A stretch of DNA of 64,000 bases from Nemertoderma westbladi. Lineage: Eukaryota; Animalia; Xenacoelomorpha. The notes under the pieces were generated by a model, which had not been told where the DNA came from, did no database searches, and saw only the letters and a list, made by a program, of their open reading frames with translations. The stretch covers positions 48,142 through 112,141 of the forward strand of contig JAUCBJ010001978.1 in assembly GCA_032718475.1 (NCBI GenBank). The letters run 5' to 3'. A program made the position numbers and the translations under genes. Shown here piece by piece: positions 1,822-17,957 of this stretch (within the stretch, counting starts at the first letter, position 1; every line of letters begins with the position of its first letter).

Positions 1822-4800
1822 ACCTAGCTGCAACCTCTATCGCCGCCCACTAACCCTAGCAGCAACCTCTATCGCCGCCCACTAACCCTAGCTGCAACCT
1901 CTATCGCCGCCCACTAACCCTAGCAGCAACCTCTATCGCCGCCCACTAACCCTAGCTGCAACCTCTATCGCCGCCCACTAACCCTAGCTGCAACCTCTAT
2001 CGCCGCCCACTAACCCTAGCTGCAACCTCTATCGCCGCCCACTAACCCTAGCAGCAACCTCTATCGCCGCCCACTAACCCTAGCAGCAACCTCTATCGCC
2101 GCCCACTAACCCTAGCTGCAACCTCTATCGCCGCCCACTGACACTAGCTGCAACCTCTATCGCCGTCCACTAACCCTAGCTGCAACCTCTATCGCCGCCC
2201 ACTAACCCTCAACCTCTATCGCCGCCCACTAACCCTAGCTGCAACATCTATCGCCGCCCACTAACCCTAGCTGCAACCTCTATCGCCGCCCACTAACCCT
2301 CAACCTCTATCGCCGTCCACTAACCCTCAACCTCTATCTCCGCCCACTAACCCTAGCTGCAACCTCTATCGCCGCCCACTAACCCTAGCTGCAACCTCTA
2401 TCGCCGCCCACTAACCCTAGCTGCAACCTCTATCGCCGCCCACTAACCCTAGCTGCAACCTCTATCGCCGTCCACTAACCCTAGCTGCAACCTCTATCGC
2501 CGCCCACTAACCCTCAACCTCTATCTCCACCCACTAACCCTAGCTGCAACCTCTATCGCCGCCCACTAACCCTAGCTGCAACCTCTATCGCCGCCCACTA
2601 ACCCTAGCTGCAACCTCTATCGCCGCCCACTAACCCTAGGCTGAAACCTCTATCGCCGCCCACTAACCCTAGCTGCAACCTCTATCGCCGCCCACTAACC
2701 CTAGCAGCAACCTCTATCGCCGCCCACTAACCCTAGCTGCAACCTCTATCGCCGCCCACTAACCCTCAACCTCTATCGCCGTCCACTAACCCTCAACCTC
2801 TATCTCCGCCCACTAACCCTAGCTGCAACCTCTATCGCCGCCCACTAACCCTAGCTGCAACCTCTATCGCCGCCCACTAACCCTAGCTGCAACCTCTATC
2901 GCCGCCCACTAACCCTAGCTGCAACCTCTATCGCTGCCCACTAACCCTCAACCTCTATCGCCGTCCACTAACCCTCAACCTCTATCTCCGCCCACTAACC
3001 CTAGCTGCAACCTCTATCGCCGCCCACTAACCCTAACAGCAACCTCTATCGCCGCCCACTAACCCTAGCTGCAACCTCTATCGCCGCCCACTAACCCTCA
3101 ACCTCTATCGCCGTCCACTAACCCTCAACCTCTATCTCCGCCCACTAACCCTAGCTGCAACCTCTATCGCCGCCCACTAACCCTAGCTGCAACCTCTATC
3201 GCCGCCCACTAACCCTAGCTGCAACCTCTATCGCCGCCCACTAACCCTAGCTGCAACCTCTATCGCCGCCCACTAACCCTAGCTGCAACCTCTATCGCCG
3301 CCCACTAACCCTAGCTGCAACCTCTATCGCCGCCCACTAACCCTAGCTGAAACCTCTATCGCCGTCCACTAACCCTCGACCTCTATCGCCGCCCACTAAC
3401 CCTCGACCTCTATCGCCGCCCACTAACCCTAGCTGCAACCTCTATCGCCGCCCACTAACCCTAGCAGCAACCTCTATCGCCGCCCACTAACCCTAGCTGA
3501 AACCTCTATCGCCGTCCACTAACCCTCAACCTCTATCGCCGCCCACGAACCCTAGGCAGCAACCTCTATCGCCGCCCACTAACCCTCAACCTCTATCGCC
3601 GCCCACTAACCCTAGCTGCAACCTCTATCGCCGCCCACTAACCCTCAACCTCTATCTCCGCCCACTAACCCTAGCTGCAACCTCTATCGCCGTCCACTAA
3701 CCCTAGCTGCAACCTCTATCGCCGCCCACTAACCCTAGCTGCAACCTCTATCGCCGCCCACTAACCCTAGCTGCAACCTCTATCGCCGCCCACTAACCCT
3801 AGCAGCAACCTCTATCGCCGCCCACTAACCCTAGCAGCAACCTCTATCGCCGCCCACTAACCCTCAACCTCTATCGCCGCCCACTAACCATAGCTGCAAC
3901 CTCTATCGCCGCCCACTAACCATAGCTGCAACCTCTATCGCCGCCCACTAACCCTCAACCTCTATCACCGTCCACTAACCCTAGGCTGCAACCTCTATCG
4001 CCGCCCACTAACCCTAGCTGCAACCTCTATCGCCGCCCACTAACCCTAGCAGCAACCTCTATCGCCGCCCACTAACCCTAGCAGCAACCTCTATCGCCGC
4101 CCACTAACCCTAGCTGCAACCTCTATCGCCGCCCACTAACCCTAGCAGCAACCTCTATCGCCGCCCACTAACCCTTGCTGCAACCTCTATCGCCGCCCAC
4201 TAACCCTAGGCTGCAACCTCTATCGCCGTCCACTAACCCTCAACCTCTATCGCCGTCCACTAACCCTCAACCTCTATCGCCGTCCACTAACCCTAGCAGC
4301 AACCTCTATCGCCGCCCACTAACCCTAGCTGCAACCTCTATCGCCGCCCACTAACCCTAGCTGCAACCTCTATCGCCGCCCACTAACCCTAGCTGCAACC
4401 TCTATCGCCGCCCACTAACCATAGCTGCAACCTCTATCGCCGTCCACTAACCCTCAACCTCTATCGCCGTCCACTAACCCTCAACCTCTATCGCCGCCCA
4501 CTAACCATAGCTGCAACCTATATCGCCGTCCACTAACCCTCGACCTCTATCGCCGCCCACTAACCCTAGCTGCAACCTCTATCGCCGCCCACTAACCCTC
4601 AACCTCTATCGCCGCCCACTAACCCTAGCTGCAACCTCTATCGCCGCCCACTAACCCTCAACCTCTATCTCCGCCCACTAACCCTAGCTGCAACCTCTAT
4701 CGCCGTCCACTAACCCTAGCTGCAACCTCTATCGCCGCCCACTAACCCTAGCTGCAACCTCTATCGCCGCCCACTAACCCTAGCTGCAACCTCTATCGCC

Positions 4801-7800
4801 GCCCACTAACCCTAGCAGCAACCTCTATCGCCGCCCACTAACCCTAGCAGCAACCTCTATCGCCGCCCACTAACCCTCAACCTCTATCGCCGCCCACTAA
4901 CCATAGCTGCAACCTCTATCGCCGCCCACTAACCATAGCTGCAACCTCTATCGCCGCCCACTAACCCTCAACCTCTATCACCGTCCACTAACCCTAGGCT
5001 GCAACCTCTATCGCCGCCCACTAACCCTAGCTGCAACCTCTATCGCCGCCCACTAACCCTAGCAGCAACCTCTATCGCCGCCCACTAACCCTAGCAGCAA
5101 CCTCTATCGCCGCCCACTAACCCTAGCTGCAACCTCTATCGCCGCCCACTAACCCTAGCAGCAACCTCTATCGCCGCCCACTAACCCTTGCTGCAACCTC
5201 TATCGCCGCCCACTAACCCTAGGCTGCAACCTCTATCGCCGTCCACTAACCCTCAACCTCTATCGCCGTCCACTAACCCTCAACCTCTATCGCCGTCCAC
5301 TAACCCTAGCAGCAACCTCTATCGCCGCCCACTAACCCTAGCTGCAACCTCTATCGCCGCCCACTAACCCTAGCTGCAACCTCTATCGCCGCCCACTAAC
5401 CCTAGCTGCAACCTCTATCGCCGCCCACTAACCATAGCTGCAACCTCTATCGCCGTCCACTAACCCTCAACCTCTATCGCCGTCCACTAACCCTCAACCT
5501 CTATCGCCGCCCACTAACCATAGCTGCAACCTATATCGCCGTCCACTAACCCTCGACCTCTATCGCCGCCCACTAACCCTAGCTGCAACCTCTATCGCCG
5601 CCCACTAACCCTAGCTGCAACCTCTATCGCCGCCCACTAACCCTCAACCTCTATCGCCGCCCACTAACCCTCAACCTCTATTGCCGCCCACTAACTCTAG
5701 GCTGCAACCTCTATCGCCGCCCACTAACCCTAGGCTGCAACCTCTATCGCCGCCCACTAACCCTAGCTGCAACCTCTATCGCCGCCCACTAACCCTCACC
5801 CTCTATCGCCGTCCACTAACCCTCAACCTCTATCGCCGTCCACTAACCCTCAACCTCTATCGCCGCCCACTAACCCTAGCAGCAACCTCTATCGCCGCCC
5901 ACTAACCCTAGCTGCAACCTCTATCGCCGCCCACTAACCCTCAACCTCTATCGCCGCCCACTAACCCTCAACCTCTATTGCCGCCCACTAACTCTAGGCT
6001 GCAACCTCTATCGCCGCCCACTAACCCTAGGCTGCAACCTCTATCGCCGCCCACTAACCCTAGCTGCAACCTCTATCGCCGCCCACTAACCCTCAACCTC
6101 TATCGCCGTCCACTAACCCTCAACCTCTATCGCCGCCCACTAACCATAGCTGCAACCTATATCGCCGTCCACTAACCCTCGACCTCTATCGCCGCCCACT
6201 AACCCTAGCTGCAACCTCTATCGCCGCCCACTAACCCTCAACCTCTATCGCCGCCCACTAACCCTCAACCTCTATTGCCGCCCACTAACTCTAGGCTGCA
6301 ACCTCTATCGCCGCCCACTAACCCTAGGCTGCAACCTATATCGCCGCCCACTAACCCTAGCTGCAACCTCTATCGCCGTCCACTAACCCTAGCTGCAACC
6401 TCTATCGCCACCCACTAACCATAGCTGCAACCTCTATCGCCGCCCACTAACCCTAGGCTGCAACCTATATCGCCGCCAACCAACCCTAGCTGCAACCTCT
6501 ATCGCCGTCCACTAACCCTAGCTGCAACCTCTATCGCCGTCCACTAACCCTAGCTGCAACCTCTATCGCCGTCCACTAACCCTAGCTGCAACCTCTATCG
6601 CCGCCCACTAACCCTAGCTGCAACCTCTATCGCCGCCCACTAACCCTAGCTGCAACCTCTATCGCCGTCCACTAACCCTAGCTGCAACCTCTATCGCCGC
6701 CCACTAACCCTAGCTGCAACCTCTATCGCCGTCCACTAACCCTAGCTGCAACCTCTATCGCCACCCACTAACCCTAGCTGCAACCTCTATCGCCGTCCAC
6801 TAACCCTAGCTGCAACCTCTATCGCCGTCCACTAACCCTAGCTGCAACCTCTATCGCCGTCCACTAACCCTAGCTGCAACCTCTATCGCCGTCCACTAAC
6901 CCTAGCTGCAACCTCTATCGCCGTCCACTAACCCTAGCTGCAACCTCTATCGCCGTCCACTAACCCTAGCTGCAACCTCTATCGCCGCCCACTAACCCTA
7001 GCTGCAACCTCTATCGCCGTCCACTAACCCTAGCTGCAACCTCTATCGCCACCCACTAACCATAGCTGCAACCTCTATCGCCGCCCACTAACCCTAGGCT
7101 GCAACCTATATCGCCGCCCACTAACCCTAGCTGCAACCTCTATCGCCGTCCACTAACCCTAGCTGCAACCTCTATCGCCGTCCACTAACCCTAGCTGCAA
7201 CCTCTATCGCCGCCCACTAACCCTAGCTGCAACCTCTATCGCCGCCCACTAACCATAGCTGCAACCTATATCGCCGCCCACTAACCCTCGACCTCTATCG
7301 CCGCCCACTAACCCTAGCAGCAACCTCTATCGCCGCCCACTAACCCTAGCAGCAACCTCTATCGCCGCCCACTAACCCTAGCTGCAACCTCTATCGCCGC
7401 CCACTAACCCTTGCTGCAACCTCTATCGCCGCCCACTAACCATAGCTGCAACCTCTATAGCCGCCCACTAACCCTAGGCTGCAACCTCTATCGCCGTCCA
7501 CTAACCCTAGCAGCAACCTCTATCGCCGTCCACTAACCCTAGCTGCAACCTCTATCGCCGTCCACTAACCCTAGCAGCAACCTCTATTGCCGCCCACTAA
7601 CCCTAGCTGCAACCTCTATCGCCGTCCACTAACCCTCAACCTCTATCTCCGCCCACTAACCATAGCTGCAACCTCTATCGCCGCCCACTAACCCTAGCTG
7701 CAACCTCTATCACCGCCCACTAACCCTAGCTGCAACCTCTATCGCCGCCCACTAACCCTCAACCTCTATCTCCGCCCACTAACCCTAGCTGCAACCTCTA

Positions 7801-17842: not shown

Positions 17843-17957
17843 TTCCATTTCGCCTTCTAGTTCTTCGTTCCTCAGTCTCAGTTTATCGATGTCGGTCTCC
17901 AGTTTCTCGCGCCGAAGTCTTTCGTATTCCAACTGGCGTTCCAGATCAGTAACGTTC
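17819..17957 (-). CDS. ANKRD42: ANKRD42 exon, coiled-coil region ([46 protein letters not shown])
   Basis: Acceptor attcatag at 17958-17959 and candidate donor GTTAGT at 17818. If that donor is unused, the frame stops at TAG 17801-17803 inside the array. Confidence 0.88.

Follow-up and report, generated by a model that had tools for sequence, protein, structure and literature searches.

A donor-spanning minisatellite of 514 units at the end of exon 10 of an ANKRD42 gene, and the probable use of its first donor

In the stretch of 64,000 nucleotides analysed here (the window), the minus strand carries a gene in which the end of an exon and its splice donor are reiterated for 16 kb. This raises the question of whether the array is intronic, with the first of the donors in use, or whether it has become the 3' end of the gene. 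The original prediction described about 500 donor-like sites, one every 32 nt or so over 16 kb, beside an exon ending in AGG/GTTAGT (the slash marks the exon-intron border). Both elements are present: 514 units with 467 exact copies of AGG/GTTAGT at 1823-17842, and an exon at 17957-17819 as described.

An ANKRD42 gene and the array at the end of its exon 10

Of 89 candidates from a search with an ankyrin exon as the query, 57 proteins passed at E <= 1e-8, and the top matches were named ANKRD42. Mapping guided by homologues placed ten coding exons on the minus strand, from the ATG at 38457 to 17819, with 464 codons and no stop:

38457-38448, minus strand: exon 1
38087-37917, minus strand: exon 2
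37217-37092, minus strand: exon 3
33457-33375, minus strand: exon 4
29988-29832, minus strand: exon 5
29614-29414, minus strand: exon 6
27019-26837, minus strand: exon 7
25618-25481, minus strand: exon 8
18379..18562, minus strand: exon 9
17819..17957, minus strand: exon 10, coiled-coil part

The product consists of ankyrin repeats and a coiled coil, as in ANKRD42; its 460-residue, nine-exon frame is collinear with named orthologues and 48-55% identical to 23 homologues, including 55% to a Branchiostoma protein. The closest relative on a conserved ANKRD42 exon has at most 80% identity, and the best relative of the neighbouring Vps55 protein has 59%. With exon 9 as the query, none of 83 candidate homologues was accepted, and a search of representatives with the ankyrin exon returned mostly long multi-ankyrin proteins and yielded no orthologue tail.

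The features at the end of exon 10 are the following:

17813..17821, minus strand: first (authentic) donor, AGG/GTTAGT, phase 0, first intron base 17818
17801..17803, minus strand: TAG met by read-through of the frame when the first donor goes unused
1823..17842, minus strand: 32-bp minisatellite after the first donor, 514 units, 16,020 bp, with 27- and 33-base variants

Tandem Repeats Finder describes 1823-17842 as an array of period 32 with 514.8 copies and 91% matches. Read on the minus strand, the array starts inside exon 10, and its unit consists of the last 24 bases of that exon plus the 8 intron-side bases beyond. Exact AGG/GTTAGT occurs 467 times on the minus strand, versus 1.2 expected by chance and a maximum of 5 in 100 shuffles; GTTAGT itself occurs 504 times, 512 of 514 units begin with GT, and the last donor copy is at 1854. 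The unit is of minisatellite size and repeated head to tail, the first unit spans the exon end and the donor, and the donor is reiterated thereafter; its anatomy makes the array a minisatellite of the donor-spanning ("mirage") type, derived from the end of ANKRD42 exon 10. The nine frame-confirmed donors of the gene are GTAAGT (4), GTTAGT (2), GTTAGC, GTTAGA and GTAACA, so that with GTTAGT in two of nine and GTTAG in four of nine, the GTTAGT at 17818 is an ordinary donor for this gene; it scores 9.9, and those nine, each held out, score 3.8-11.1, on a scale trained on just nine sites of each kind. The stop that the original prediction placed at 17801-17803 on read-through is there, ahead of the second donor copy (offset 33). 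By the 50-55-base rule of NMD for the distance from stop to junction, the accompanying proposal that NMD removes splicing errors is questionable where the nearest copy is concerned, the stop being only 15 bases before the new junction.

The array contains 68 unit types in non-random order. Exact block duplications of 1041 and 903 bases point to turnover of the array; together with the longest run of repeated units, 33 long where 100 shuffles gave no more than 9, they would be a record of slippage and unequal exchange. At its distal end the array stops abruptly, with a unit cut off at the donor; this last unit stops short of GTTAGTGG and the unique intron sequence, whereas arrays of 29 and 35 bases elsewhere in the gene do run through.

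Several other accounts of the repeat were tried and rejected. A coding array is ruled out by 296-512 stops per frame, all six frames being closed and the longest open stretch being 96 codons. A self-contained new intron with its acceptor in the last unit was discarded because the AGs at the distal end score below zero as acceptors (-2 to -7), and an origin inside a terminal exon because the 8 extra bases begin with the gene's own donor hexamer. The unit has a 9-base match to (TTAGGG)n, yet it consists of the last codons and the donor, against a telomeric origin; a strong G-quadruplex array was dismissed on a G4Hunter mean of 0.82, with fewer than 1% of windows reaching at least 1.2. An Rfam search of 1-19000 gave no matches.

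Splice-site arrays within the gene and in other animals

Tandem arrays with a period of at least 10 number eight inside the gene, and six of these end no more than 30 bases from a splice site (a donor in four, an acceptor in two), versus 12% of non-array bases (binomial P 7e-5, by a test devised post hoc). In addition to the 32-bp array, they are:

18934..25510, minus strand: 35-bp donor-spanning array, x183, repeating the exon 8 tail and donor, in the internal intron 25480-18563
37038..37106, minus strand: 29-bp duplication, x2.4, across the exon 3 donor (CAG/GTTAGT), from Tandem Repeats Finder
29333..29414, minus strand: 31-bp repeat, x2.4, from the exon 6 donor onward, from Tandem Repeats Finder
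33465..33657, minus strand: 14-bp array, x13.8, ending 8 bases ahead of the exon 4 acceptor, from Tandem Repeats Finder
30000..30459, minus strand: 20-bp array, x23, ending 12 bases ahead of the exon 5 acceptor, from Tandem Repeats Finder

The original prediction contained neither these other splice-site arrays nor the exon-like stretch at 1657-1613 that is described below.

The 35-bp array provides an internal control, in that the exon after it (exon 9) is known and the frame outcome of every donor copy can be computed. Of the 159 donor copies in the intron 25480-18563, only the first gives an open frame, while 105 shift the frame and 53 hit a stop, which supports use of the first donor at the 32-bp array as well. 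Provided that the gene is expressed, as its intact frame suggests, the first of more than 150 donors would already be chosen in the same transcript. The junctions of the 29- and 35-base arrays have short shared words.

Arrays of this kind are known from other animals. The human F7 intron 7 VNTR, IFI6-16, CBS, LMNB2 and PDGF have 5-25 units; the first donor is used, with the next one or two also used in two of the genes, and in human F7 constructs the identical donors downstream, although functional, came into use only once the upstream donor had been mutated (PMC1557585). In these genes, as here, the first unit spans the donor and identical donors are reiterated in the intron, but their 5-25 copies compare with 514 here, where an in-frame stop and 24 bases of the exon belong to the unit as well, and where the next exon is a candidate only. 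The human ABCA7 intron 18 VNTR has a 25-bp unit that begins at the exon's donor GT, with alleles up to 10,678 bp or approximately 427 units; use of the second-copy donor gives an out-of-frame transcript, and effects of length have been measured in people (PMC5954066). Its unit likewise repeats the donor, and the array described here, at 16,020 bp and 514 units, exceeds it in length without leaving the same order of magnitude; the ABCA7 unit is intronic only and sits in an internal intron, whereas the unit here includes exon bases. The amphioxus "mirage" minisatellites, found in the globins BflGb6 and BflGb9, Adh3 (known through citing papers), troponin C and PGBD5, involve both donors and acceptors, have units of 10-160 bp, occur several per gene and reportedly leave splicing undisturbed (PMC3087553, PMC3902484). 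The arrays of the present gene resemble them in being tandem repeats across exon-intron borders, of both border types and several per gene, but BflGb6 has 3-6 copies where the two largest arrays here have 514 and 183, and the host animal is no close match to amphioxus, judging from the 55% identity to the Branchiostoma protein. The cause of such repeats at exon borders is called unclear in one report (PMC3087553). Beyond the F7-type, ABCA7 and amphioxus cases, no further case was found in the literature, and no such repeat was found in the ANKRD42 literature as judged by title and abstract start, mostly outside subscription papers.

What follows the array

If the donor at 17818 is used, an exon encoding the C-terminal tail should lie beyond the array. 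In all 22 of the homologue tails used (near-full-length, non-bird entries), 58-74 residues extend beyond the coiled-coil motif, versus 28 here. A profile of this tail, which is basic with a motif of the GGVF[VI][KR]R type, found no match in the window, including the 17.8 kb left of the donor (best 7.3 bits, E 0.9), while all 22 homologue tails, when held out, scored 31-76 bits; the original statement that no GGVFVRR-like C-terminal exon was found between 790 and 1822 is thereby extended to the whole window. With a loose pattern the tail motif was detected in 28 of 38 homologues, the exceptions being nine bird entries (three of them cut short) and one frog isoform. In a cluster of frog proteins the annotated isoforms diverge at residue 29, and an insertion that begins with Val is present in five of the eleven members that reach the motif and absent from six; in terms of these gene models, this is the pattern to be expected if a phase-0 intron at the corresponding position had a second donor, and it suggests an old phase-0 intron at the end of exon 10. 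The putative exon-intron border at 17818 has a typical donor, longer homologues and a coincident break in frog isoforms, and the exon downstream of it is a candidate.

The stretch just past the array contains the following features:

1613..1657, minus strand: candidate exon 11, with a TAG acceptor behind a T-rich tract, 15 open codons rich in lysine, phase 0 and GAG/GTTAGT donor
1476..1517, minus strand: weaker candidate last exon, with the best-scoring acceptor left of the array and 13 codons to TGA
1742..1787, minus strand: two AATAAA (1742-1747, 1782-1787), at distances of 67 and 107 bases from the final donor copy (1854)

Candidate exon 11 begins 165 bases beyond the array. The T fraction upstream of its AG is 0.60, compared with 0.38-0.62 at true acceptors, and at least 0.55 is found at 4 of 257 background AGs; its donor, 45 bases on and in frame, is the best of 109 in 1-1822, with a score that 1 of 354 background GTs reaches, and the best of 101 acceptors left of the array follows 95 bases past it. 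No acceptor-donor pair scoring equal to 1657-1613 was found in 6411 intron bases. The lysines of the candidate align with the lysine run of the homologues. The intron that it implies would have a non-array part of 165 bases, close in size to the short introns of the gene (217-421). The two candidates have a GC content of 0.33 and 0.31, which is intron-like compared with 0.47-0.52 in the nine longer exons; their codon score is unconvincing (30% of open intron windows do as well), and they add 3 bits to the homologue profile, a gain that shuffling of the same tail equalled in 169 of 500 cases. On these features of the sequence, 1657-1613 is a candidate exon of ANKRD42, and unproven. A LINE fragment occupies 1-880, but more LINE pieces are present in the intron 33374-29989, so the fragment is no marker of the end of the gene.

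Weighing the readings

The array is probably intronic, with splicing from the first donor, at 17818. Instead, exon 10 might now be the last exon, its donor unused, with the first repeat providing the stop, a 16-kb 3' UTR and a transcript end after the AATAAA at 1747; perhaps a deletion at the distal end of the array removed the old last exon. In keeping with this are the tail exon that the profile did not detect in the window, the distal unit truncated at the donor, the bird homologues, which show that the tail can drift, and the array itself, in which neither AATAAA nor ATTAAA was found. The AATAAA at 1747 also has the most T-rich downstream stretch of 62 minus-strand AATAAA, equalled by 0.7% of intron 45-mers, and the pair resembles the hexamer pair behind the neighbouring Vps55 gene. 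However, this T-rich stretch ends at the AG at 1657 and is equally explicable as an acceptor tract. Both of the AATAAA noted in the original prediction are present, but they are copies of one duplicated element of approximately 40 bases, and their density past the array (2.2 per kb) falls within the 1.0-5.8 per kb of other AT-rich parts of the window. Further, the hexamers follow the last donor copy by only 67 and 107 bases, and binding of U1 within a 3' UTR inhibits 3'-end processing (PMC10870369, PMC9105396); the donor at 17818 is also typical of the gene. Exon 10 as the last exon is thus less likely than splicing from the first donor, and we consider it unlikely; that satellite expansion turned the last intron into the 3' end of the gene, with a stop supplied by the repeat, a lost tail exon and about 500 U1 sites right before the poly(A) signal, is, as a whole chain of events, improbable to a slightly greater degree. 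Of the two outcomes that the original prediction set side by side, first-donor selection is the better reading, but of a situation that is already known (PMC1557585, PMC3087553).

An error of assembly, either in the number of copies or as a misjoin that lost the last exon, could account for the two exact block duplications of about 1 kb and the abrupt distal end, but is very unlikely given the 68 unit types and their order, the absence of any N from the window and the further arrays of the same build in the gene. Least likely of all is retention of the array for a function, whether as the U1 snRNP sink of the original prediction or as a length dial for the share of a tail-less isoform. Its roughly 500 donor sites each have six of nine matches to the U1 target, and in human ABCA7 a longer donor VNTR is reported to go with lower expression and use of a cryptic donor one unit downstream (PMC5954066). 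Nevertheless, about 500 sites are few compared with about a million U1 per mammalian cell (PMC10870369), arrays of similar build occur at acceptors and mid-intron and not at donors alone, and the number of distinct substitution alleles per site is 1.22 at donor positions and likewise 1.22 at the other positions of the unit (a weak test, with 32 positions). Donor positions as variable as the rest of the unit give no sign of selection for or against decoys, and the array is probably without function.

For splicing from the first donor, the proposed origin of the array is a short duplication across the exon-intron border, aided by shared words at the junction, that slippage and unequal exchange then would have enlarged. 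The spliceosome would recognise exon 10 as the stretch between its acceptor and the donor closest to that acceptor, and would commit to the first donor before, or irrespective of, the later copies, which appear to lack acceptor-like sites of their own; the first donor would be chosen because no other donor terminates an exon that begins at a real acceptor, and because it is made first. The intron may extend as far as the candidate acceptor at 1657, or past the edge of the window to an exon on its left. If a later copy were used on rare occasions, the product would be a protein of 469 residues minus the basic tail, and a missed first donor here would cost that tail only.

A donor-spanning minisatellite with use of the first donor is a known situation that calls for no new mechanism, and the array here is unusually long. 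If exon 10 is spliced from the first donor, the first-donor rule would be extended from the 5-25 copies of F7 and its kin and the approximately 427 of ABCA7 to 514, in an animal without a close relative in protein searches. If the array is instead a 3' UTR, the gene would be a rare example of one whose 3' end has been rewritten by a satellite. With six splice-site arrays, the gene is a handy test bed for the tolerance of exon definition to decoys and for the origin of repeats at exon borders.

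Repeats within the ANKRD42 introns

Two tandem arrays of ANKRD42, a minus-strand gene, lie within introns and away from splice sites:

34334-37019, 145 copies of an 18-bp unit with a higher-order period of 149 bp
27546-28877, 4.2 copies of a 315-bp unit at 98% identity

The 18-bp array is separated from the exon 3 donor by 73 bases. In the region 26780-26900 (minus strand), the beginning of the intron that follows exon 7 carries a partial, short copy of the 3' part of that exon, which is not in tandem and is perhaps a decayed duplication of the exon-intron border.

The ANKRD42 tail in birds

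The C-terminal GGVF[VI][KR]R-type motif is frameshifted, degenerate or absent in bird entries of the ANKRD42 protein comparison (P0029, P0031-P0034, P0036, P0038, P0040-P0042 and P0044).

LINE pieces and neighbouring frames

The window also carries the following features:

1-880 (-), LINE piece
30607-31850 (-), LINE piece
39725-41143 (+), LINE piece
46746-47117 (+), LINE piece
55011-57665 (+), LINE piece
43499-43915 (+), Vps55/LEPROT-family gene without introns (Pfam PF04133)
60874-64000 (+), intronless frame that stays open for at least 1042 codons

The LINE pieces comprise an endonuclease fragment whose frame is broken near 600, a reverse-transcriptase frame to which fragments elsewhere in the window are 84-96% identical, and, from another family, a reverse-transcriptase frame of 885 codons. 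The long open frame, for which Pfam gave no match, contains a 21-bp coding tandem repeat (62202-62341). The Vps55/LEPROT-family gene and ANKRD42 are oriented head to head, and a pair of AATAAA motifs at 44745 and 44788 looks like the poly(A) site of the former.
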